Assembly (NCBI GenBank): GCA_039586795.1
Contig: JBDHJS010000003.1
Coordinates: forward strand, 96,001 to 160,000
Length of the DNA: 64,000 nt
Source: Gemmatimonadota bacterium
GTDB lineage: Bacteria; Gemmatimonadota; Gemmatimonadetes; Palauibacterales; KS3-K002
Reading direction: 5' to 3'
Part shown: positions 40,637 through 53,748 of the stretch, in pieces
How the letters are laid out: every line of letters starts with the position of its first letter
Position numbering within the stretch: position 1 is the first letter of the stretch
Made by a program: the position numbers and the translations under genes
The notes under the pieces: generated by a model
What the model was told of the DNA's origin: nothing
Databases searched by the model: none
Seen by the model: only the letters and a program-made list of their open reading frames with translations

Positions 40637-42271
40637 ATGACCGCAAATCGCCATGCCGACGAACTGAGGCGTAGAGCCGAAAAGGATCTTCGCGACCAGT
40701 TCCGCATCGAGTCAGTCCTTGGGTGCGGCGAAGATTCTGTGGTTCTGCTTGCCAAAGACGTGGCACGCGGAAGCCGCCTCGCGCTCAAGATCGTGGCGAT
40801 GCCGAGCCTGCCGCCGGGCCTATCTTCCGGCGATTTAGTGACGCGGTTTGAGACGATGGCTAGCGGCGTCAGCTCTCTCAGGCACTCCCACCTGGTTCCG
40901 ATATTCGACTACGGAAGCTTCGACGACTTCTTCTGGTACTCGATGCAGCGGGAAGAAGGACCCTCACTCGAGGTGGTCCTGACCGGGTCCGGCCGACTGG
41001 ATCTCCACAGAAGCCTGGCGATCATCGAACAAACAGCGTCAGCTCTCGATTTCCTCAACCGGAGGGGATTCGCCCACGGCGCGCTGCGACCGAGCCAGAT
41101 CTTTCTTGCAGACGGAAAGTGGGCACGTGTCGCCGATCAAACGCTCAGTCGGATCCTTCGCCCGGTAGGAACCAGCGAGGCCGCCAGCAGCACAGGGTAC
41201 GAAGCTCCCGGCGACGACAATCCTACGATCGGCGCTGCCGCCGCCGACCAGTACGCCCTGGCGATGATCGCGTATCGATGTCTCTTCGGGTCACCGGAGT
41301 CCGATGCAGGAGATTCACCCAAGACCGGTGCGGAACTGGACGGCGAGTTTGATCCGCCTCGTGTCTCGCCCGTGGATGCTCGGGGCGGGGATTTCCCAGA
41401 CCACATCGTCGATGCCCTGGAGAGAGCCCTGAGTGAATCGCCTCAACATCGTTTTGCCAGCGTACTCGATTTTGCCACACTGCTGCGCGGCGGTTCCTGG
41501 GTGCTGAGCAATCCAAGAGACCGACGAAGCCGCGCGGGCGCCCCCGATAAGCCGAGAGCCTTTGTGCCCGGGGAAGACCGCGAACCCGCCGACGTCATAA
41601 AACGAGCGCTAGATGCCGCCGGCGCGGATAGATCCGCGCGTTCGATACTCCCCGCGGTGCGAGAAGGTGGGATGTTGGCCCGGATGATCCATGCCCGACC
41701 TATGGCTCACACGATCAGCATAGGTGGCGTAGCGGTGATTCTGGCTCTCGCCGGCGCGGCTTTCCTTTCCCGCGGTTCCGGCGCGAGCTCCGAACCCGTG
41801 TCTGCGGTGGAGCGACCTACGGCACCCACAAGCGCAGAACAGAGCGGTACCATTAACGAGAACGAAGAGCCGACGCCAGATCCTGCACCGGATTCCGAGT
41901 CGGGGGCGGCCAGCAACTCCGAAAGCCAGCCCACGTCTGAATCACCTCAGGCCCGGCCTGCAGAAACGACCGACGACACGCCCATCGACCGGAGCAGCAG
42001 TTCCGTCGCGACGAACGGCGAGCCTGCGGCGCAAGAGCCCGTTGCCCTCGAGCCCGGGCGACTGTTTGTCAACTCGACGCCCTGGGGACGACTGTATATC
42101 GACGGCACGTTGATTGGAAACACGCCCCGGGCGAATCTCTTCATCGAGCCCGGTCCGCACGTCATTCAGATTCTCCGAGACGGTTTCGAGCCCTACGAGT
42201 TGGAGATCGAGGTGCTGCCCGGCGAAACGATTCGGCTGACCGAGATCGAGCTGACTCCAGCCAGGTCGTAG
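40637..42271 (+). CDS. Hanks-type Ser/Thr protein kinase-like protein (probable pseudokinase) with TM helix and C-terminal PEGA domain
   Basis: LGCGEDSVVLLA, LALKI, L.H.HLVPIFDYG and DQYALAMIAY are present, but the catalytic loop is HGALRPSQ and DFG reads DQT. A TM helix, a Pro/Ser/Glu linker and PEGA (LFVNSTPWG.LYIDG..IGNTP) follow. Confidence 0.85.
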   Translation: MTANRHADELRRRAEKDLRDQFRIESVLGCGEDSVVLLAKDVARGSRLALKIVAMPSLPPGLSSGDLVTRFETMASGVSSLRHSHLVPIFDYGSFDDFFWYSMQREEGPSLEVVLTGSGRLDLHRSLAIIEQTASALDFLNRRGFAHGALRPSQIFLADGKWARVADQTLSRILRPVGTSEAASSTGYEAPGDDNPTIGAAAADQYALAMIAYRCLFGSPESDAGDSPKTGAELDGEFDPPRVSPVDARGGDFPDHIVDALERALSESPQHRFASVLDFATLLRGGSWVLSNPRDRRSRAGAPDKPRAFVPGEDREPADVIKRALDAAGADRSARSILPAVREGGMLARMIHARPMAHTISIGGVAVILALAGAAFLSRGSGASSEPVSAVERPTAPTSAEQSGTINENEEPTPDPAPDSESGAASNSESQPTSESPQARPAETTDDTPIDRSSSSVATNGEPAAQEPVALEPGRLFVNSTPWGRLYIDGTLIGNTPRANLFIEPGPHVIQILRDGFEPYELEIEVLPGETIRLTEIELTPARS

Positions 42272-42318
42272 CCGGTCACGGACATCCAACTGCCGCAACC
42301 TCATAAGACACGGCCGTT

Positions 42319-42334
42319 TGGCCCAAGACTTGCC
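42319..42334 (+). promoter_or_regulatory. Candidate sigma-54 -24/-12 promoter for the His-kinase operon
   Basis: TGGCCCAAGACTTGCC is near consensus and about 150 nt upstream of the start at 42487. Confidence 0.6.
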
Positions 42335-42486
42335 ATCCCTTACTTTGCCTGGCTGCTTTCTCCCGCTACATTGATCCTGCTATTCTGCAGAGCAGAGTAG
42401 TATGGATTACCGGAGTCGCGAAAACACCTCTCTGAACCTGTGATCCGTAGAGCTGCACTACCAGTGCAGCCAACGGAGAATCGTCG

Positions 42487-44133
42487 ATGTCTGTGTCGCC
42501 GCAAACACGTCCGAAGATCGACTATGAGGGTGCGGTTTACGCCCTCAAGGTCTCCGCCAAGCAAGTCGTAACAGACTGGCAGGGGGATGACGCTAAGGAA
42601 GCGTCGAAGGTTGTTGCCTGTTTGTGTCGAGCCGTCGCGCGGTACTTGAGCGGAAAGAAGCTTGCCATTGACCGCAGTATCGAGGCGGGATTTGGCATCC
42701 ACGTCCTCGGACTTCTGCGCGCAGAGTTGCTCCGGGTCTGGACGCGTAGTGAAGTCCTCCCAAGCGCGCGAACGATCGTCCAAACGCATCGCGCGCTTGA
42801 TGAGCTCGAAAACACTCTCAAACCCCGCCTGGCGGACGGTCTCGCTAATAGCTTTGCCGGACAGCAGAGTCTGAACCTTGTCGTCGAACTCGCCCACGAT
42901 CTTAGATCACCTCTGACATCCATCCTCTCTCTGGCTGAGATACTGCACTACGGTGACAGCGGGCCCGTTACGGAGCGCCAACGTCGCCAACTCAGCCTCA
43001 TTTACGAGAGCGCGCTTCAGCTGAGCGGCCTCGCCAGCAACGTGATCGAGATCGTTCGTGGTGGTAGCGACTTGTCAGATGACATGCTGTCGCCGTTCTC
43101 GGTGTCGGAAATCCTGCAGTCGGTGCAGGAGATAATCCGGCCGATCGCCGAGAAGAAGGAGCTGACGATCCGGCTCATCACTCCGCCCCGAGATCAAAGA
43201 TTTGGCTACCCACAGGCGTTGAGCCGCGTGCTCCTCAACCTGACGACCAATGCACTGAAGTTCACGGACAAAGGGTTCGTCGAGATCGCGGCGCGCGCTC
43301 GAGGTCTGACACAGATTGAGTTTTCTGTCCGCGACACTGGGGCTGGGATTCCGGAACAGTCGCTCGCAACGCTGTACGACCCGTTCCGCTCCGATCAATC
43401 GGAAGGAAACCTGCGTTTCTCCGGCTCCGGACTCGGTCTGGCGATTTGCCGGAAGCTGGTAGACGCGATGGGCTCCGAGCTCAAGGTCGTCAGTGGCGCC
43501 TGGGGTACGCAGTTCTCATTCTTGCTCGATCTTCCGTTATCGGAGATCACGCCGGAGGAGCGCCGCCAGTACAGAATGGAGCGCTTCAAACGTATCACGA
43601 AACCGAAGCGAGTCACGCGTGCCGCTCTGGCCGTCGCCGCCGCGGCAACGGTCATAATCGTCGCCGGCACGTTGATCAGTCGAGATCGACGAGCTGCAGA
43701 CGAGAACACGCCAGAGGTGGAACTCGCCAGCACACCCCAGGATCAGGGTGTCTTGGGACTGGAACCGTCGACCGTGGCACCTTCCACGGCGAGCCCGGCT
43801 CTCCCGGCGCCGGAGGAAGAAGCTCCGACGCCGGATCCGACCACAGCGGCGGTACCCGCGTCAAGCTCCGAGCAGCAGGCGCAACAGGACGCTCCCGTGA
43901 GAGACATCACGCCTCCTCCTCCGGGTCAACTCTCAATCAACTCGACTCCATGGGGCTTGCTGTTCGTCGATGGGGAATTGGTCGGCAACACGCCGAAGGC
44001 GAATGTCGTACTACCCGCAGGCACTCACATCATCCGCATCGTTCGCGAGGGGTTCGAGGATTACAGACGCGAGATCTACATCGAGTCAGGAGCAGCGCTC
44101 CGCATCACCGATATCACACTCGTGCGCCGCTAA
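42487..44133 (+). CDS. Histidine kinase (HisKA + HATPase_c) with C-terminal TM helix and PEGA domain
   Basis: H box ELAHDLRSPLTSI, N box NLTTNALKFT, G1 VRDTGAGI, F box YDPF and G2 GSGLGLAIC, followed by a basic stretch, a TM helix, a Pro-rich linker and PEGA. Confidence 0.9.
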   Translation: MSVSPQTRPKIDYEGAVYALKVSAKQVVTDWQGDDAKEASKVVACLCRAVARYLSGKKLAIDRSIEAGFGIHVLGLLRAELLRVWTRSEVLPSARTIVQTHRALDELENTLKPRLADGLANSFAGQQSLNLVVELAHDLRSPLTSILSLAEILHYGDSGPVTERQRRQLSLIYESALQLSGLASNVIEIVRGGSDLSDDMLSPFSVSEILQSVQEIIRPIAEKKELTIRLITPPRDQRFGYPQALSRVLLNLTTNALKFTDKGFVEIAARARGLTQIEFSVRDTGAGIPEQSLATLYDPFRSDQSEGNLRFSGSGLGLAICRKLVDAMGSELKVVSGAWGTQFSFLLDLPLSEITPEERRQYRMERFKRITKPKRVTRAALAVAAAATVIIVAGTLISRDRRAADENTPEVELASTPQDQGVLGLEPSTVAPSTASPALPAPEEEAPTPDPTTAAVPASSSEQQAQQDAPVRDITPPPPGQLSINSTPWGLLFVDGELVGNTPKANVVLPAGTHIIRIVREGFEDYRREIYIESGAALRITDITLVRR

Positions 44134-44134
44134 C

Positions 44135-45193
44135 ATGAGACTCATTCGTCACCTTGCTCTCGCCCTAGTTCTGATCAGCTCCATTCCGATTGCTGCTAGC
44201 GCTCAGTCGGCGAGGCAGTTGCTGCAGGACGGAGTCTTTCGCTATCGCAACCTCGAGTACGATTCAGCGACGGTCCTGCTTGAACGCGCCCTGGATCTGT
44301 CCTTGCGTCCTCCGCTGGCGCTGGAAGATCGAGCCGACGCGCTAACGTTCCTGGCAGCCAGCCTGGTCTTCATGGGCCAGGCCGATTCGGCTGAAGTGGT
44401 CTTCACCACGCTGGTAAGACTCGATCCGCGCTACGAGCCCGACCAACTCGTTTTTCCTCCGGAAGTGACGAGCGTGTTCGAGTCGGCCCGGCGCGCAACG
44501 ATGGCCATCGCGATTGAGGCGCCGGAACGAACGCAGTTCTTGCTCGACCAGGGACAGTTTTCGGCCCGGCTGTTTGCCAGCTCCGTTCATGACATCTTGG
44601 CCGAGATCCGCACCGCGGACGGAGCACGTCGCCAGACGATCTACACAGGGCCGGTGCGTGACAGCTTGCAGCTCAGCTGGAATGGTCGTGACCCTGCAGG
44701 CGACGTTGCGCCGAGCGGGCTTTATATGCTGGAGGTGACCTCGCGGGACGCTCGGGGAATGGCTCTTCGCACGGTGACCATGCCGCTCGAGGTTAGCGTC
44801 TCGAGGGCCGATACACTTCCGTTGCCGACCACACCGCCAGACTCTCTCTTCCTACCCGAAGAGACAACCTCCGGCAGGGCTAGCGCCGAGGCCCTCGTCG
44901 GCGGCGTGATCGCGGGTGCGGCCGTTCTGCTGGTGCCGTTGGCGATTGCACCGAGGATTGATCTGAGTTCGGCACGTTATGTCATTGCGGGTGCCCTCGG
45001 CGCGATCGGCGTCGTTGGGACCCTGAAGTATCGGCCAGGAAGACCACTACCGGACAACGTCGAGTACAACGAGAATCTCCGCAGAGCGCTGCGCGCGCAA
45101 ACGGATTCAATACTAAGAGAAAACGCTGCTCTACGAGGCGAAGTGCGGTTCGTGATCACCGCTGGTGAGCCGACAAGCCTGGATCGGCGATAG
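44135..45193 (+). CDS. Exported protein with TPR-like helices and a FlgD-Ig-like domain
   Basis: Signal peptide (..ASA/Q), TPR-like segment (GV.RY..LEYD.A..LL.RAL..., A..FL......G..D.A...F), LSWNGRD..G..APSGLY.LEV, and a C-terminal hydrophobic hairpin. Start ATG 44135. Confidence 0.65.
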   Translation: MRLIRHLALALVLISSIPIAASAQSARQLLQDGVFRYRNLEYDSATVLLERALDLSLRPPLALEDRADALTFLAASLVFMGQADSAEVVFTTLVRLDPRYEPDQLVFPPEVTSVFESARRATMAIAIEAPERTQFLLDQGQFSARLFASSVHDILAEIRTADGARRQTIYTGPVRDSLQLSWNGRDPAGDVAPSGLYMLEVTSRDARGMALRTVTMPLEVSVSRADTLPLPTTPPDSLFLPEETTSGRASAEALVGGVIAGAAVLLVPLAIAPRIDLSSARYVIAGALGAIGVVGTLKYRPGRPLPDNVEYNENLRRALRAQTDSILRENAALRGEVRFVITAGEPTSLDRR

Positions 45194-45199
45194 GCGAGC

Positions 45200-45865
45200 A
45201 TGGTCCTGCAAACGAGACGCTTTCTGATCTGTTTGACGACATTGGCCGCCCTCGTGGCGTCTGGCGAGCTGTTCGCGCAGGTGCCGATGACCTCGTCTTA
45301 CGCCAGCCTCGGACCGTCATTCACCATTCTCGACATCGAACGACCCAGCCCCGCCGGGACCCTTCGGGTCAGCGGCGTCAGCATCGTGGGTGAGGCGGGT
45401 GTGGTGCTCTCGGTCTTCTCCGCCGACGCGCGCCTGGCGACCGGCAGTCTCGATTACGAGGATGCCGAGGGCTCGGCGACTCTTGCGGAAGCTGAGTTGA
45501 TGGTCGGCTTCCGCCCGCTGCGGTGGGTGGCACTGCAGGTAGGCCCCCACCTCAGAAAGCTAGACACAACGCAAAGCGAGAACTGGGTCTTCTGGGAGGC
45601 TCGAATCTGGTTTGGGGCAACGCTGCTGGAAAGGGTCGCCTACAGCTACATGAAGGGGTGGCTAATACTCTCTGCCAGCGAGCCGGAGAACACGACGTTC
45701 GATAACGGCTTCGGATTCGAGGGTGGCCTCCTCCTCAAGACCACAACGCTACCTGTCTGGGTGAAGACCGGTTACAGAATAGACCGGGTGACTTTCAACG
45801 AACTCAGCAGCGCCGACACGCCGCAGCAGCTGTTCCTACTCTTCGGCATCAACTTCAATATCTAG
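45200..45865 (+). CDS. Putative outer-membrane beta-barrel protein
   Basis: Signal peptide, alternating amphipathic strands, and C-terminal LFLLFGINFNI. Confidence 0.65.
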   Translation: MVLQTRRFLICLTTLAALVASGELFAQVPMTSSYASLGPSFTILDIERPSPAGTLRVSGVSIVGEAGVVLSVFSADARLATGSLDYEDAEGSATLAEAELMVGFRPLRWVALQVGPHLRKLDTTQSENWVFWEARIWFGATLLERVAYSYMKGWLILSASEPENTTFDNGFGFEGGLLLKTTTLPVWVKTGYRIDRVTFNELSSADTPQQLFLLFGINFNI

Positions 45866-46125
45866 CTCGGCCGGCCCGCAATGTTGCGGCGGCGGCGCTC
45901 GGACTCTAACTCCAACAGCGGTTCGCTTCCGGCGCTTAGACCGAATCGCGCCAGTTGTGACGCCTTCCGCAGTAGCGCACCTGCTGCTTCCGGCAAACGC
46001 GTTCCGCACCTCGGACAGATCGGTGACTTCCGCCCGTCGCTGCTGTCCGCTGGGAGCCGCTCCACCGCTACCTTTTCGGACAGCGCACCCTTACCCTGGC
46101 CGCATACAACGCAGTCGTCGCTCAC
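45862..46125 (-). CDS. Small hypothetical Zn-finger-like protein
   Basis: CxxC (CVVC) and CxxC (CPRC) pairs. GTG start 46125 behind AAGGGGGG; the stop overlaps the convergent beta-barrel gene. Confidence 0.45.
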   Translation of the reverse strand: MSDDCVVCGQGKGALSEKVAVERLPADSSDGRKSPICPRCGTRLPEAAGALLRKASQLARFGLSAGSEPLLELESERRRRNIAGRPS

Positions 46126-46659
46126 CAAAGAACCCCCCTTAACCGGCCCGGCACAGTACATCTCGCGGAAAATGCGCTCTGTTGATGCCCTGTCACGAAC
46201 ATGAAGAGACCCTTCGACCGAAAACTGGGATCGATTCTGTCCAGTACTTCATATGTTCGAGTGCACGCTTATGTGGAGTCCCACAAAGGAGATGCGGAGG
46301 CAAGAAAGGGACCAACGGACGATGGGTCACTCACGGATCGCCACAGTTGACGAATGGCGCTAAGTGCCGACGTGCCATACATATGTTCACCCTGGCAGAG
46401 GATATTCGGGTGATGCTTTAGCGCTACGGAACAGATGGATCCGGCTATCACGATCGCAACACTGGCCGTCCGTCGACCCGCACGCGGTTCTCACCCATCA
46501 GATGGACCCGCACAAGACGAATCTGGGTGCGGGTGCACGTGTTGCTTCCAAGCTACAGCCAGGCCTCGGGGGTAGCGCGGCCCGCGAGACAGATCGGTGA
46601 ATCGGGGCTAACCCGGCCAAGATCGCTGCTACTGCTTGATCTGTGGCCGCTTCTTGTAC

Positions 46660-46675
46660 CGGCACGCTCCCTGCT
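46660..46675 (+). promoter_or_regulatory. Candidate sigma-54 -24/-12 promoter for the TonB-dependent receptor
   Basis: CGGCACGCTCCCTGCT has a strong -24 GGCACG element and lies about 50 nt upstream of the start at 46727. Confidence 0.5.
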
Positions 46676-46726
46676 GTATGCTCATTTCGAACTTTCCGGC
46701 ATTACGTGTAGCAGAACTCAACCGGA

Positions 46727-49700
46727 GTGAGAACGCTGAACAAGGGCTACAGGTCTCACACGATCTCACCTCGTCGATCCTACCGCTGGCTGTTGAGCAT
46801 CGCCTTTTCTCTGTCCGTCTTCGTGTCGACGGCTGCTGCCCAGAGCATTTCCACCGGCACTGTGGCAGGCAGGGTGACGGACGCCAGCGGCAACCCTGTG
46901 GCCGGTGCACGGGTGAGAATCACAGAGGTCCGAACGGGAGTAGTTCAGTGGCATGACACTCGGGCGAGCGGGGCTTTCTTCATTGCGATGCTTCCGCCCG
47001 GCGAGTACGACGTGTTCGTTGAGGAGATCGGGTTGCAGCCGGAGGAGCTCCGGCGTGTTCCGGTCACACCGGGACAGACCATTGAGCTCGAAGTGACATT
47101 GCAGCCGGCGGTTCTGCCGGTGAACGATGTTGTCGAGAGCAGTTTCGCAGACCCGATTGAAGATTCCTGGGCGGGCGAATCACAGTACTACTCCTCTTTC
47201 GAGTTGCGCGAGCTTCCGAAGCAGCGACGCGAGTTCTCGGAGTTGGGCCGCTTTTCGAGCGTCTCAAACGCCAGGCTTGCTACTCAAGGGTTACCGGGCT
47301 GGCTGACGGGCTTGGCGGCCGACGGTATGCTCTACAGTCCCACTCGGCACCCGCACTTGCCCACCAGTTCCACTCGTACTGAGGTGCTTCCGCTCAGCAA
47401 CTTCGCGTCGGCGGAACTGCTGATGAATCCGATCGATGTGGAGTGGAGCGAGTTTGCTGGCGCTTACTTGACCGGCAGCACGTTGCGTGGATCCCGTGAG
47501 CCGGAGGTCCGGTTCTTCGGTGACTGGACCGGCGGCGTCATCACCCAGTCCGACAATTTTGACGGTCAAGATGTGGGTACGCACAGTTTCCGCGCGGGCG
47601 CCTCGGTAGCTGGGCCGATCCTGAAGGACACGGCGCACTACGCGATCGGTTTCGAGGCACAGCGACTGCAGACACCGCTACCACCTGCCTGGGCTATCGA
47701 CACGTTCGACGATCGGTTGATCGCGGTGGCCGATTCGTACGGCGTAAACCTAAGGCCCTACACACGGGCGCGGGTCGTTGAAGAAGAGCTGGGCACGGCT
47801 TACGGACGATTCGACTGGCAAATCACGGAGAACCACGCGTTGTCAGTTCGCGGCAACGTTTCGTCAGTGAAGATCGGCGGCAACCCGGACCTCGATCCCG
47901 GTCTGGGACCTGAGGAGATCGCCAGTATCGGCTCGGAGGTCGAAGGGATAGACCTATCGACTTCCGGAACTCTCTCTTCGCGTTTCAACAACATGTTCCG
48001 ACAAGAACTCCGTTTGGGAATCGATCGTACGGAGCGCGAGTACACTGGTACCGAAGTTCTTGGAACACGAATCGTCGAAGGCGGCCTGGCGTTCGGCACC
48101 GACCCAACGGTGCCCGGCAAGTTCGATCAACTCACGGCCCGGCTGTTCTGGACTCTACATGCGAAGGTCAGCAGGCATCGACTGAAGTTCGGCGCGGGAG
48201 CCACGTACCTATCCGCCGAGCAAAGGTATACATACGCGACGGGCGGAGAATTCGCATTCTCGGGAGTGGACGAGTTCTCGGCTGCCAGTGGTTCGTTCGC
48301 TAAAGCCGGCGGCACAGCACCTTTCGGCAAGTACGCTAACTGGCAGTTCGCGACGTACCTGCAAGACCTCTGGCAAGCGGCGCCGGGCCTCGACGTGCTT
48401 CTCGGCCTGCGTTGGGAATACGAGCGCATCGACATCGAGGCGATCAGGCAGAATGCGGACTGGCTGGATCGCACCGGCATAGATAACTCCCAAACAAATG
48501 AGAAGTACATCAACAAATGGAGCCCGCGGTTCGCCATGCGTTGGGATATCGGCAACCGCGGAATCTGGATCGTACGCGGCGGTTGGGGGCTCTACCACAA
48601 CCTGGTCGATCCCGGCGCCTTCGCCGAAGTGATCACTCAGGACGGCCGCCAGTTCGGCCGGCGCGGTCTGGGAGACCTGGGGTTCTGGCCCGAGGACCCG
48701 GGCCTTGGAGCCGCCCCTATCATCGGGCAGCAGCTGAGCATGCTGGGCCCCGAGTTTCAGGGTCCGCGCACGAGCCGAGTCAACCTGGGTCTCTCCCGGT
48801 TGTTTGACGACCGTACGGCTGTAATCCTGCATGGCGTCTACCGCTACACGGACCACCTGGTCCGCCGCAACGATCTGAACCTGGTGCAGTCTCCGACGAC
48901 CGTAGATCAATACGGGCGGCCGGTATACGGACAGCTCGTCCAGCAGGGCTCTCTACTCCAGGTCGAGCCCGGGACGAACCGTCGCTTTCAGGATTTCGCC
49001 GTCGTGTCGGCACTAAACGCCGACGGCGTCTCCAACTATTGGGCGGGCACGCTCGCCTTCGAGCGGCACCTCGGCGAACAGCTCGAGGCGATAGCCAGCT
49101 ACACGTTCTCGTGGACGGAAGACAACTGGCTCTCGGGCATGGGCGGAGGCCCGCCGGTGGAACTCACGCCGTTCCCCGACAGTCTGAACCGGCGCGATTG
49201 GACGAAGGGTACTTCCGACTTCGATCGACCGCACACTTTGGTTCTCGCCGCCCAGTACAAGTTTCCGCTGGGAGTGGCCACGTCACGCGTAGCCGCGTTC
49301 TACCGATTCAGCTCAGGCGTACCATTCACGCCCGGTTTCAGAGATGCTGTGGACGTCAACGGCGACGGCTCCGGACGCAACGACCCGGCATACATCGATG
49401 GCGCTCTGGATGGCATGCCGGGGCTGATATCGGCTTGGGGATGCTTATCCGAGCAGATCGGGCGTTATGCGTCACGCAATTCATGTCGCGGACCTAGCCT
49501 TCATCGACTCGACCTGCGATTGGCCGTCGGACTCTACACGGTCCACGGCCATCCTCTAGAGTTGGTTGTGGATGTTCTGAACGTGCTCGACGCCGAAACC
49601 AATGTTCTTGACAAGGCGCTATTACTGATCGACGGTGGCGGAACCGTGCAGACGAACCCAGACGGAACAATCACAATACCGTTCCAGGTCAACCCGAATT

Positions 49701-49768
49701 TCGGCAAGCCACTGATCTACAATCAGCAGGGCCGAGCACTCCGCTTCGGATTACGGATGGGAATCTGA
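46727..49768 (+). CDS. TonB-dependent receptor with N-terminal carboxypeptidase-regulatory-like domain (Oar-like)
   Basis: Signal peptide, GTVAGRVTDASG.PV.GA.V, GPI.KD..HY, YLQD.W......L.LGLRWE, SPRF...WD, and a C-terminal DV.NVLD ... RALRFGLR strand. Confidence 0.9.
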   Translation: MRTLNKGYRSHTISPRRSYRWLLSIAFSLSVFVSTAAAQSISTGTVAGRVTDASGNPVAGARVRITEVRTGVVQWHDTRASGAFFIAMLPPGEYDVFVEEIGLQPEELRRVPVTPGQTIELEVTLQPAVLPVNDVVESSFADPIEDSWAGESQYYSSFELRELPKQRREFSELGRFSSVSNARLATQGLPGWLTGLAADGMLYSPTRHPHLPTSSTRTEVLPLSNFASAELLMNPIDVEWSEFAGAYLTGSTLRGSREPEVRFFGDWTGGVITQSDNFDGQDVGTHSFRAGASVAGPILKDTAHYAIGFEAQRLQTPLPPAWAIDTFDDRLIAVADSYGVNLRPYTRARVVEEELGTAYGRFDWQITENHALSVRGNVSSVKIGGNPDLDPGLGPEEIASIGSEVEGIDLSTSGTLSSRFNNMFRQELRLGIDRTEREYTGTEVLGTRIVEGGLAFGTDPTVPGKFDQLTARLFWTLHAKVSRHRLKFGAGATYLSAEQRYTYATGGEFAFSGVDEFSAASGSFAKAGGTAPFGKYANWQFATYLQDLWQAAPGLDVLLGLRWEYERIDIEAIRQNADWLDRTGIDNSQTNEKYINKWSPRFAMRWDIGNRGIWIVRGGWGLYHNLVDPGAFAEVITQDGRQFGRRGLGDLGFWPEDPGLGAAPIIGQQLSMLGPEFQGPRTSRVNLGLSRLFDDRTAVILHGVYRYTDHLVRRNDLNLVQSPTTVDQYGRPVYGQLVQQGSLLQVEPGTNRRFQDFAVVSALNADGVSNYWAGTLAFERHLGEQLEAIASYTFSWTEDNWLSGMGGGPPVELTPFPDSLNRRDWTKGTSDFDRPHTLVLAAQYKFPLGVATSRVAAFYRFSSGVPFTPGFRDAVDVNGDGSGRNDPAYIDGALDGMPGLISAWGCLSEQIGRYASRNSCRGPSLHRLDLRLAVGLYTVHGHPLELVVDVLNVLDAETNVLDKALLLIDGGGTVQTNPDGTITIPFQVNPNFGKPLIYNQQGRALRFGLRMGI

Positions 49769-49770
49769 TC

Positions 49771-50745
49771 ATGCGCGTACGCCCAACGCTGGCTCTAATA
49801 GCAACTCTAGCCGTGACATCGCTGGCCGGTTGTCTCGGTACCGGCGAGGACCGCGTCCTCAGCGTTACGTCGACGGGCACCGTTCAGGGTCTGGTGTACT
49901 TCGATACGAACGGGAGTGGCAGGTTCGATGAAGGCGACACCGGAATACCGGGCGTTCAAATCGGGCTCACCTCGCTCGGCTCGATCATCCCGATCTACAT
50001 CGCCACTTCTGACCTGGATGGACTCCTCGAGATCCGACGCGTTGACGTCGCTACCTACGAGGTAATCGTCGATACGACGATCGTCGGTGACAGCGCCCAG
50101 TTCGTAGGAGTCGACCCCGCAGCATTCACACTGACGCCCGACGATACGGCGGATATCACGATTGGTGTGAGTTACCCCAGCGTCACCGTCGAGGACAGCA
50201 AAGCGTTGCCCGTAGGCGAGACGGTCTTCGTTGAAGGCATCGCCCTCAACGACCGGCTCACATTCGGTGACAATACGGTCCACGTCAGCGGTAGAACCCT
50301 GGCAATCCGTACTACAAACGTGCGCACCGGTACCGTGCTGGTCGGGGACAGCATTCGCATCCTGGCGACGACGCGAACGGTACTGGGCCAACCGGTTCTC
50401 GACGCACAGTCCGTCTTCAACCTGGCCGTCACGAACCCGCCCGACGCGACTATTGCCACGGCTAGCGTCGCCTCAGCGGCCGACGGTGGACTATTGGACG
50501 CTGCCCTCGTCGAGGTCGACGCCGTGACGATCAACGACACCCTGACCACGGCAGAGGGTTTCCGCCTCACGGTCGGTGACCTGTCCGGCACGCTCCTCGT
50601 CCTTCTCGACAAGGATGCGCCGATCGCCAACCCGGAGCTGTTCGTGCCAGGAATGCTGATCGATGTGCTCGGTTTGCTCGTTCCTGACGGAACGGGGAGC
50701 TGGATCCTCAAGCCACGCACGAACCTCGACCTGACGATCCGGTAG
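49771..50745 (+). CDS. Lipoprotein with an SdrD-B-like domain and OB-fold-like domains
   Basis: Lipobox LAGC, VQGLVYFDTNGSG.FDEGD.GIPGV.I.L, OB-like segments (VGETVFVEG, VGDSIRI, V.DLSG.LLV.LD) and terminal LKPR...DL. Confidence 0.7.
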   Translation: MRVRPTLALIATLAVTSLAGCLGTGEDRVLSVTSTGTVQGLVYFDTNGSGRFDEGDTGIPGVQIGLTSLGSIIPIYIATSDLDGLLEIRRVDVATYEVIVDTTIVGDSAQFVGVDPAAFTLTPDDTADITIGVSYPSVTVEDSKALPVGETVFVEGIALNDRLTFGDNTVHVSGRTLAIRTTNVRTGTVLVGDSIRILATTRTVLGQPVLDAQSVFNLAVTNPPDATIATASVASAADGGLLDAALVEVDAVTINDTLTTAEGFRLTVGDLSGTLLVLLDKDAPIANPELFVPGMLIDVLGLLVPDGTGSWILKPRTNLDLTIR

Positions 50746-51747: not shown

Positions 51748-51817
51748 GTATGTCCGTGCGGCTGGCGATCGTTGACCGTTGGTAGGCCGCCTGCGAAGTT
51801 TCTTAGCTTGAACAGAG

Positions 51818-51891
51818 TGGCCCTGGAGGGACTCGAACCCCCGACCTTCGGTTTAGGAAACCGCCGCTCTATCCGACTGAGCTACAGGGCC
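51818..51891 (-). tRNA. tRNA-Arg (anticodon CCT), CCA not encoded
   Basis: Reverse complement GGCCCTG TA GCTC AGTCGGATA GAGC G GCGGT TTCCTAA ACCGA AGGTC GGGGG TTCGAGT CCCTC CAGGGCC A folds into a cloverleaf. Confidence 0.95.
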
Positions 51892-51955
51892 GCGCCCGAA
51901 AGGCTATTCAGGCCCGGTAACTCGTGTCAATGGCCCGTTGGAGGAACCGCAAGTA

Positions 51956-53748
51956 ATGAGAAGATATTTATTCGTTCTGGTAGCGTTGTCACTCGCCGCA
52001 CCGACGGCTGGAGCCGCTCAAACGACCTTTATTGTCAACACCACAAACGACGTCGATGACTCGACCTGCGATGCGACCCACTGCAGTTTGCGCGAGGCCA
52101 TCGATGCCGCAAATCAGACCGCCGGAACCGATACGATCGCGTTCAACATACCGGGAGGCGGCGGCGTTCAAATCATCAGTCCAGGTAGTGCGCTGCCTGT
52201 CATCACGGACCCCGTGGTAATCGACGGTACGTCCCAACCGGGTTTCTCCGACGAGCCCATCATCGGACTCGATGGAAGTGGAGCGGGTACGGTGGACGGC
52301 CTCCACATCACCGCTGGCTCCAGCGTGGTTCGCGCTCTGGCGATCTACGCCTTCGATAACGGCATACTACTCGATGTGAACGGAGGCAACACGGTGGTCG
52401 CGAGTGTCGTAGGCTCCACCGGTAAGGCCGTTCAATGCGAGGACCTCGGGAATACTGCTGCCGGCATCGTGGTTCAGAGCTCGGACAACGTCATCGGCGG
52501 CGCGTCACTCACCCTGTCTAACGAGATCGTCTGCAACACCACGGATGGAATCCGCATGACGACCTGGGCTTGGCAGACCTTGGGAACGGACGCGATGGGG
52601 TCCGGATCGAAAGCTCTACGGACAATACGATCGGTGGCACCGGCCTATTTCAAGGGAACTTCATCGTCCGCAACGTCGGGGACGGAGTCCGAATCGCTGG
52701 AGCCGCATCCGCTAACAACCGCATCGCTGGCAACACGATCGCGCAGAATGACGGGTACGGGATCCTTCTTCCCGACGCCGGAACTGGAAACGAGTTCGAG
52801 ACCAATCACATCTCGGACAGCGGCCAGATGGGGATAGACCTGGGCGAGGATGGCGTCACTGAGAACGACATCGGTGACACGGATACCGGCCCGAATGACT
52901 ATCAGAACTACCCCGATATCAGCTCCGTCCGGATCGGCGGCGCAGTCTATATCGACGGCGCACTTCGCAGCACGGCCAGCACGAATTTCAGCATCGAGAT
53001 ATTCGAAAGCGAGTTCTGTGACGCGACTAATCATGGTGAAGGCGAGTCTTTCGTTACCCGAGAGGGCGTGACAACGGCCGCTAACGGAGAAGTGGACTTC
53101 CTCATCGTGGGCGCTGATGTAGAGCCCGGTGCCTACGTAACCGCTACCGCCACGAGCAACACCGGCAACACATCCGAATTCTCACGCTGCGTCCAGGCCA
53201 GCGGATTCTCCGTGACCATCGTACCGGATACCACCATCGTCAATCGCGGAGGGATTGCGAGGTACGCGGTGGAAGTCATGCCGGTTGGCGGCTCCTACAA
53301 TGCAGAAGTGGCCCTGCGCTGCAACGAAAAGCCGGTTCTTACCGCTTGCACTTTCTCTCAGGACACCGTGATTCCTGGAGCGAATGGAGTGACCTCATTC
53401 CTCGAGATTCAGACGAGCGCCTCGGGAACCTCGAGCCTCAGCGTCGCCGAAGGTCAAGGCACCGGCGGCGGCCCGTTCTGGCCGGGCGCCCTCGTGATAG
53501 GGCTGCCCGCAATCGCTCTTTTGGGGCTGATCCTCTCGAGGGAAGACCGCCGGGCACGCCGGTTGGCGATTCCGGTCGTAGCGGTGCTCGTTTTGGCTGG
53601 CGCGGCGATGCAAGCTGGCTGCAGTGAGGACGGGGTCAATGGGCCTCCCGGAGGCGGCACACCGTTAGGCGCACACCGGATTGTCGTCCAGTCCAAGTCG
53701 GATCCAATCATCCAGCTTTCGACGACAACTCTCGTCGTCACGCCGTAG
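51956..53748 (+). pseudogene. CSLREA-domain, beta-helix surface protein split by a frameshift near 52555-52570 (pseudogene or assembly error)
   Basis: Frame from ATG 51956 (RBS GGAGGA) gives a signal peptide, TNDVDD..CD..HCSLREAI.AAN and beta-helix repeats up to CNTTDGIRM. Homologous repeats resume in another frame (DLGNGRDGVRIE..., GIDLG.DGVT.ND..D.D.GPN..QNYP, TATAT...GNTSEFS). Confidence 0.75.

Follow-up and report, generated by a model that had tools for sequence, protein, structure and literature searches.

In cell-surface signalling of the FecA/FecR/FecI type, an outer-membrane protein addresses a single-pass inner-membrane protein across the periplasm, and in Slam-dependent (type XI) secretion a TPR domain and a 14-stranded barrel are united in one protein that is encoded beside a lipoprotein. 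The TagQ/TagR-PpkA pathway of the Pseudomonas aeruginosa H1 type VI secretion system (T6SS) works by threonine phosphorylation and is likely activated by adaptor-driven dimerisation (PMC13713981), in TssW-PpkA-Fha of Acidovorax citrulli a kinase of the inner membrane is held in position across the envelope by an anchor in the outer one (PMC12607579), and PrsK/PrsR of PEP-CTERM/exosortase loci combines a histidine kinase (HK) with a sigma-54 regulator in an exopolysaccharide locus (PMC9850573). The locus described here lies in a 64,000-nucleotide stretch of a genome that named homologues assign to Gemmatimonadota (the window, positions 96001-160000 of contig C102; its own genome, G000, is assembled in 107 contigs). 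At positions 40637-45865 of the window, a cassette of four genes encodes a pseudokinase, an HK, an exported adaptor with TPR and FlgD-like domains and a small outer-membrane beta-barrel, and both kinases end in a PEGA domain, a domain described in 2004 (PMC2447325). This cassette is a real and rare rewiring of a phylum-wide envelope module, of the trans-envelope kinase signalling kind, for which we propose a signal and a partner.

In its parent form, the module resembles TagQ/TagR-PpkA in having a membrane lipoprotein, a periplasmic adaptor and a Hanks kinase of the inner membrane whose C-terminal part is periplasmic. However, no sequence or fold link of TagQ/TagR to the adaptor, the barrel or PEGA was found by Pfam and fold searches (an unlisted family is possible), and the cassette of the window differs further in that it includes a small barrel, its Hanks kinase is dead and an HK shares the docking tail. 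There were no T6SS genes in the listed loci, no genome-wide T6SS search having been made. TssW-PpkA-Fha consists of other proteins with another output, and the cassette contains no FHA protein. Unlike FecA/FecR/FecI, the window locus has no anti-sigma or extracytoplasmic function (ECF) gene, and the TonB receptor that follows the cassette differs from the FecA type in its carboxypeptidase-regulatory-like N-terminal domain, in giving no STN match and in being unlinked to the cassette in relatives. In contrast to Slam, the cassette encodes the TPR domain and the barrel in two genes, and for the barrel 10 strands and an OpcA fold are predicted. Our literature search, which covered mostly open-access papers without their supplements, found no description of the four-gene module and none of a protein in which an HK is followed by a transmembrane (TM) helix and PEGA.

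The HK gene (42487..44133, plus strand, 548 aa) encodes, in this order, an N-terminal helical region, HisKA with His137, HATPase, a basic stretch, a TM helix at residues 379-397, a linker and PEGA at residues 480-541. HisKA and HATPase_c score above the Pfam cut-offs, and the H, N, G1, F and G2 boxes are intact. The sole hydrophobic helix stands behind the ATPase domain, unlike in the prototypical membrane-sensor HK with its N-terminal TM/sensor part. The protein belongs to a large family of soluble kinases of 350-400 residues, which are tail-less yet have the N-terminal helical region in common with the fused HK. Among the best 120 matches and the best 150 representatives, the tail was found only in the window HK and three others: P0002 (78% identity to the window HK), P0231 (47-51%, with PEGA) and P0003 (54-56%), which belongs to genome G012 (93% complete) and is cut off ahead of PEGA, where its contig has a chimeric-looking end. 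Elsewhere, the scaffold of P0003 contains a piece that opens with linker, PEGA, adaptor and barrel, and the gene preceding this HK also codes for a TM-linker-PEGA protein. Behind the HK tail, at the scaffold joint (L050:11575-11929), the G012 sequence switches abruptly to low GC, probably marking a chimeric contig end. The tail in three further sequences rules out that the fusion is an assembly artefact.

Within the order, this HK family was found in 7 of 145 genomes and the fused form in 2 of 145. In trees, the fused HKs form one clade, which stands apart from the family's own soluble copies (approximately unbiased (AU) p 0.004); the first tree contained 40 of the 117 soluble matches and the second 22 matched proteins, many rows having been picked by likeness to the fused HK and without taxonomy. 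A recent duplication of the neighbouring soluble HK is ruled out as the origin of the fused form by this placement. What is new in the locus is a normally soluble exopolysaccharide-locus kinase whose catalytic core is intact and whose C-terminus bears a membrane tail, a fusion that is rare and of single origin. A review of HK sensing describes N-terminal sensors or soluble kinases, and a C-terminal periplasmic domain is absent from its available part (PMC8534201).

The preceding gene (40637..42271, plus strand, 544 aa) encodes a Hanks-type kinase fold in the cytoplasm, a TM helix at 359-377, a linker and PEGA at 475-535, as assigned from Pfam (Pkinase and PEGA), a motif alignment and a TM scan; the Pfam PEGA matches of the two kinases have E values of 7e-10 and 1e-11. 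An earlier note on this DNA had described the two neighbouring signalling genes, with their shared end of TM helix, Pro-rich linker and PEGA, within a row of six open reading frames (ORFs) in which gaps of 1 bp and 6 bp occur. The positions, all on the plus strand, were confirmed from the sequence (the five gaps are, in order, 215, 1, 6, 861 and 2 bp) and the shared end by TM scan and Pfam. The two PEGA domains are indeed alike, with 51-52% identity (tblastn E about 1e-20), and the stretches of them that had been set side by side are correct. Both linkers have 75-90 residues and 14-17% Pro and are also rich in Ser, Ala and Glu. The predicted topology is that of type II single-pass membrane proteins with PEGA in the periplasm. 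The non-catalytic nature of the kinase fold, which had also been claimed, was borne out: the domain keeps the VAIK Lys and the alphaC Glu, and has HGA in the catalytic loop, DQT in place of DFG and an eroded glycine-rich loop, the catalytic Asp and the DFG motif both being gone. Judged by these motifs the protein is a pseudokinase; it also lacks the N-terminal zinc ribbon of many relatives. Of 24 close relatives compared, 13 have likewise lost the Asp, 5 retain the Asp alone and 6 show HRD in a canonical loop, so the pseudokinase state is old. In the distant clade, the kinases matched by a motif pattern nearly all have HRD and DFG, the pattern finding only such motifs.

A search with a single adaptor protein recovered its gene from 54 of 401 genomes of the class, and a profile search from 90 of 401 of the phylum; G000 is counted in both figures, as is the unpublished genome G364, of which no sequence was used. 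The gene is common in one sister family (40/85) and rare in the window's own family (3/24). A pattern scan of genome contigs based on the adaptor yielded no more than a single weak locus. Synteny was tallied for 59 adaptor copies at 57 loci, which comprise the best matches and 20 more distant ones, kin among them not being independent. PEGA ends the gene directly upstream of the adaptor in 48 of the 55 copies with room (four at contig ends were dropped), a kinase domain heads 41 of 46 such upstream PEGA genes, and a barrel gene lies downstream in 53 of 57 copies (two dropped). None of the tallied copies has an HK upstream of the adaptor, G012 being broken at that point. In 41 copies the gene before the PEGA gene could be called: 22 have an Ig-type Pfam domain and reach more than 3,300 residues, about a dozen are unannotated (several with a lipobox) and at least five are unrelated. 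Because of this gene order, we take as the parent form an Ig-repeat lipoprotein followed by kinase-TM-PEGA, adaptor and barrel, of which the pseudokinase is the ancestral member present in the window. The gene-neighbourhood search proposed in the earlier note therefore came out in part as expected: the order of PEGA gene, TPR gene and barrel is conserved throughout the phylum, with the HK form as a rare, not typical, variant.

The window cassette has the parent order from the PEGA gene to the barrel and not its first gene. No close counterpart of the Ig-repeat lipoprotein was found in G000 by motif scan and similarity searches, where repeats can drop out of an assembly of 107 contigs. An unlinked 1,713-residue predicted lipoprotein rich in Thr, Ser, Val, Ala and Gly is encoded at G000:C6:30538-35676 and is a possible partner in trans. 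In relatives, the Ig-repeat lipoproteins of loci L070, L071, L072, L060, L064, L066, L068 and L083 carry a short motif after the lipobox Cys (basic, hydrophobic, acidic/Ser, x, Leu), possibly a surface-sorting signal. Two loci of family f6 (L128, L129) have adaptor and barrel followed by two lipoproteins, with none ahead and without a kinase gene.

The adaptor (44135..45193, plus strand, 352 aa) has a signal peptide, a TPR domain (mature residues 1-98), an Ig domain of FlgD type, a hydrophobic Gly-rich helical hairpin and a long helix. Its AlphaFold2 (AF2) model has a pLDDT of 91.7, and fold searches gave FlgD and TPR matches, the Pfam match to FlgD_ig being weak. In 129 homologues, each helix of the hairpin is hydrophobic on average (mean hydropathy 1.97 for one and 1.89 for the other), which makes membrane insertion of the adaptor likely; the charge around the hairpin did not discriminate between inner and outer membrane. 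No glycine-zipper family was found for the hairpin, a part that the fold search barely covered. The barrel (45200..45865, plus strand, 221 aa) was modelled by AF2 with 10 strands and a pLDDT of 94.4, and its best fold matches are of OpcA/OmpT type (OpcA 2vdf with Z 22.2, root-mean-square deviation 1.8 and 183 residues aligned; OmpT also matched). Across 37 members, no Pfam family was found for the barrel beyond one weak match, and no NCBIfam family was found for adaptor, barrel, TonB receptor or lipoprotein. Predicted structures and fold searches thus back the exported TPR/FlgD-like protein and the beta-barrel of the earlier note. At L144:2182-4074, a protein of 631 residues ends in the barrel, with 440 unannotated residues ahead of it.

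The docking of PEGA was modelled in one three-chain job of adaptor, barrel and HK PEGA, with three controls and own alignments. PEGA was placed on the TPR domain with a score of 0.61 versus 0.00 for the best control; three runs agreed in 100% of contacts, the pLDDT of the partner was 89, and replacing the adaptor brought the score down to 0.00. In calibration, 116 of 157 solved complexes and 2 of 215 mismatched pairs attained the mark for this score, figures that are only roughly valid for a three-chain job with own alignments. The modelled contacts join the conserved VFPPE motif (residues 105-110) and the first TPR loop of the adaptor to the PEGA stretches NxTPWG, NTP and RxT. Among the adaptor residues in contact are F84 and P86 (mature numbering), the two positions of the TPR part that do not vary over the 129 homologues. 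Between the PEGA domains of HK and pseudokinase, 11 of the 12 contact residues are identical versus 23 of 55 elsewhere, and the contact Trp is missing in both other alignable PEGA domains of G000. A sequence search found no solved PEGA-TPR complex. From the model, PEGA probably binds the TPR domain of the adaptor, and the 11 shared contact residues suggest that the pseudokinase PEGA would use the same site. Of the docking of both PEGA domains on a common TPR/outer-membrane complex, as first suggested, the TPR part is predicted and the contact face of PEGA is kept in both kinases; no barrel contact is listed, which is no evidence against one.

As for the output, the soluble relatives of the HK stand in exopolysaccharide loci, behind a sigma-54 response regulator and divergent from Wzc. 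Two regulators of this type lie 23-32 kb ahead of the window in G000; behind one comes a soluble HK, and the other, an orphan PrsR-like regulator at G000:C102:73076-74518, has a sugar transferase in that place and lacks the usual kinase gene. Eleven copies of the regulator were found in 31 genomes of the family, nine of them readable, and an HK gene lies behind seven of the nine. The two without are exactly those of G000 and G012, the fused-HK genomes; G012 has one such regulator and no other HK of that family. The H-box helix of an HK selects the regulator. From His to His+14, the fused HK and the soluble HK of the exopolysaccharide locus are identical in 13 of 15 residues, the next best of the 18 H-boxes in the genome in 10. 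Since both carrier genomes have a regulator without a neighbouring kinase, the orphan sigma-54 exopolysaccharide regulator is likely the partner of the fused HK. In genome G316, of another family, a kinase-less TM-linker-PEGA gene, adaptor and barrel (L088:5310-9512) lie directly behind a regulator of the same type and beside Wzc, with no lipoprotein, which gives the cassette a second tie to an exopolysaccharide locus. In the region G000:C102:59377-75598, ahead of the window, a gene set (receiver/GGDEF-like, Wzc, sigma-54 regulator) occurs twice, and both Wzc genes are preceded by a sigma-54-like site.

The likeness to PrsK/PrsR (TIGR02916/TIGR02915) stays below the family cut-offs: TIGR02915 is the best or second-best NCBIfam match of three scanned regulators, with scores of 344-375 against a cut-off of 502.6, the orphan regulator is 71% identical to a scanned one, and TIGR02916 is not among the best 25 NCBIfam matches of the HK. 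The parent HK is, moreover, soluble and the fused HK anchored C-terminally. In G001, an exosortase lies behind the HK.

A candidate sigma-54 (-24/-12) promoter for the HK, adaptor and barrel genes lies at 42319..42333 (plus strand), with one mismatch to the consensus, against which all sites were scored by mismatches. Sites in the window alone were not above chance (2 found versus 3.7 expected), and in a DNA alignment of the two intergenic gaps the two sites do not fall in one column; genome-wide, sites upstream of genes were about five-fold enriched (49 versus 3-12 in five shuffles and 17 on the opposite strand). G012 has a sigma-54-like site with two mismatches in the same gap before the HK. 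No sigma-70 site was found. The control of sigma-54 glycan operons that the earlier note had considered is supported indirectly, by the H-box likeness, by the regulators without a kinase neighbour and by these sites.

We propose, with a probability of about 0.5, that the state of the adaptor and barrel tunes the HK via PEGA docking, and the HK in turn the orphan sigma-54 regulator of exopolysaccharide genes. The adaptor would sit in a membrane via its hairpin, work with the barrel (in relatives presumably also with the Ig-repeat surface lipoprotein) and report the state of the envelope. The PEGA tails of pseudokinase and HK would dock on the same TPR site of the adaptor; docking or clustering there could alter HK activity by tethering or dimerising, the pseudokinase may be a scaffold or a competitor for that site, and the phosphoryl group would pass from the HK to the PrsR-like regulator at 73076-74518 of contig C102. 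The retention of the HK tail across sequences 47-78% identical supports this proposal.

Several points weigh against it. The tail behind the ATPase domain, with its long flexible linker, offers no established route of signal transfer, and the N-terminal helical region of the HK may be the real sensor. The Ig-repeat lipoprotein that might supply the input is lacking at the locus. Genomes G001 and G002 of the same genus (86% and 83% complete) are without the adaptor, 7 of 55 adaptor copies are without an upstream PEGA gene, and the PEGA of the G012 fused HK is a presumed one. The tree placement apart from the family's soluble HKs means that the fused HK is not simply the regulator's old neighbour relocated, and the two orphan regulators are probably orthologues, which makes them one event and not two. 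Concerning the docking face, three of the contact residues (Pro and Thr-Pro) look like general PEGA features, so that contact conservation is partly a matter of the fold, and the FPP motif may have another job, since it is kept in three kinase-less copies (L064-L066) and in the second L068 copy.

Some of these points would also fit a cassette that is mainly structural, in which adaptor and barrel serve to anchor a surface lipoprotein or to display it, PEGA only tethers and the HK senses via its N-terminal helical region. This is possible, with the odds clearly against it. The Ig-type domain in more than half of the identifiable upstream genes, several with a lipobox, is in line with it, as are the cytoplasmic part, which varies freely (active kinase, pseudokinase, none or HK), the adaptor copies without a PEGA gene and the tail-less soluble HKs with the same N-terminal region. 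However, the full catalytic motifs of the distant-clade kinases fit signalling, the lipoprotein is gone here with the adaptor and both tails retained, and a 10-stranded barrel is too narrow for the passage or export of a protein. That PEGA binds peptidoglycan or another wall polymer, like PASTA of Hanks kinases, and not the adaptor seems quite improbable: type II topology and a long linker suit wall sensing, and PEGA is named among peptidoglycan-associating domains in the available part of PMC7159879, which gives no experiment on PEGA, but the complex model and the conserved contact face indicate the TPR domain. We also consider it unlikely that the locus is a decaying remnant, with a lost lipoprotein, a degenerating kinase and an HK tail that is a functionless accident. 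Kinase motifs eroded beyond those of most relatives, the missing lipoprotein gene and the patchy distribution in the family would agree with decay; yet none of the four tightly coupled frames is interrupted, the fusion with TM and PEGA is kept down to 47-56% identity, the contact residues are retained in both tails, and the catalytic Asp is likewise absent from over half of the close relatives of the pseudokinase.

Finally, the earlier note had counted the two genes behind the barrel as parts of one six-gene system, with a surface cue sensed by a TonB-dependent-receptor-like protein (46727..49768, plus strand; longest ORF 1013 aa, start probably later; Pfam OMP_b-brl_4 and CarboxypepD_reg) and a lipoprotein (49771..50745, plus strand, 324 aa; lipobox and a weak SdrD_B-like N-terminal domain by Pfam). 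Strand and adjacency in G000 agree with that idea, and the six-gene stretch is, as noted then, divergent from a glycan locus, at whose end lies a NAD-dependent epimerase (names for the window's glycan genes come from their sequences and from a small number of Pfam matches). The receptor does follow the barrel; coupling to it is contradicted by the 861 bp between them, which hold a candidate sigma-54 promoter (46660..46674, plus strand, two mismatches) shared by the G000 and G012 orthologues of the receptor. Neither gene occurs in any of the 57 cassette loci (49 copies with more than 4 kb downstream). The lipoprotein was found in 51 of 301 genomes, the receptor lies directly upstream of it in all 16 other loci with room (three were cut), and inspection of the gene lists of 16 wider loci around the pair shows a gene or regulator of glycan-locus type no more than three genes away and no cassette gene. 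The glycan genes and the epimerase recur in G012, where receptor, lipoprotein and purE come straight after them with no cassette between, and the barrel in G012 and G003 is followed by tRNA-Arg(CCT) and a zincin. Six-gene synteny is ruled out by these arrangements, and a single six-gene system is very improbable. The block consists of two units, the four-gene cassette and a separate receptor/lipoprotein pair, and G000 has a cassette locus and a glycan/receptor locus interleaved. The pair is probably a sigma-54-controlled unit of the glycan locus and at most a regulated target of the cassette. In the window, 5.95 kb separate the barrel from the tRNA-Arg(CCT) gene (51817-51891), a distance of about 750 bp in G012 and G003. 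Receptor/SdrD_B lipoprotein pairs like that at 46727-50745 are conserved in Gemmatimonadota exopolysaccharide loci (L147-L165, L190, L203-L218) and are candidates for the outer-membrane part of polysaccharide export or reuptake.

Returning to the cassette, the PEGA domain, for which we found no binding partner in the literature, gains a specific predicted one, and the finding indicates a phylum-wide envelope module of Gemmatimonadota. It also adds an HK with the layout of a Hanks kinase, with the core inside, a single C-terminal TM helix and a periplasmic domain. If the adaptor does control the HK, this would be two-component regulation apart from the N-terminal sensor route, with two phosphorylation chemistries on one periplasmic site. 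More speculatively, PEGA-TPR docking might be a general plug of the Gram-negative envelope, by which any cytoplasmic output with a TM-linker-PEGA tail (Ser/Thr kinase, pseudokinase or HK) becomes linked to a membrane-inserted adaptor and a small barrel; the HK of this lineage would then be controlled C-terminally, as receptor kinases are, and set the production of exopolysaccharide in competition with the pseudokinase for one adaptor.

DNA near-identical to the window is present in sediment metagenomes, as short pieces only, and RNA contigs with the stretch are pieces of 150-260 bases, uninformative on transcription or operon structure. Further along the window, at 51938-53748, a CSLREA-domain/beta-helix surface protein is encoded in two frames that overlap near 52570, due to a frameshift or an assembly error.

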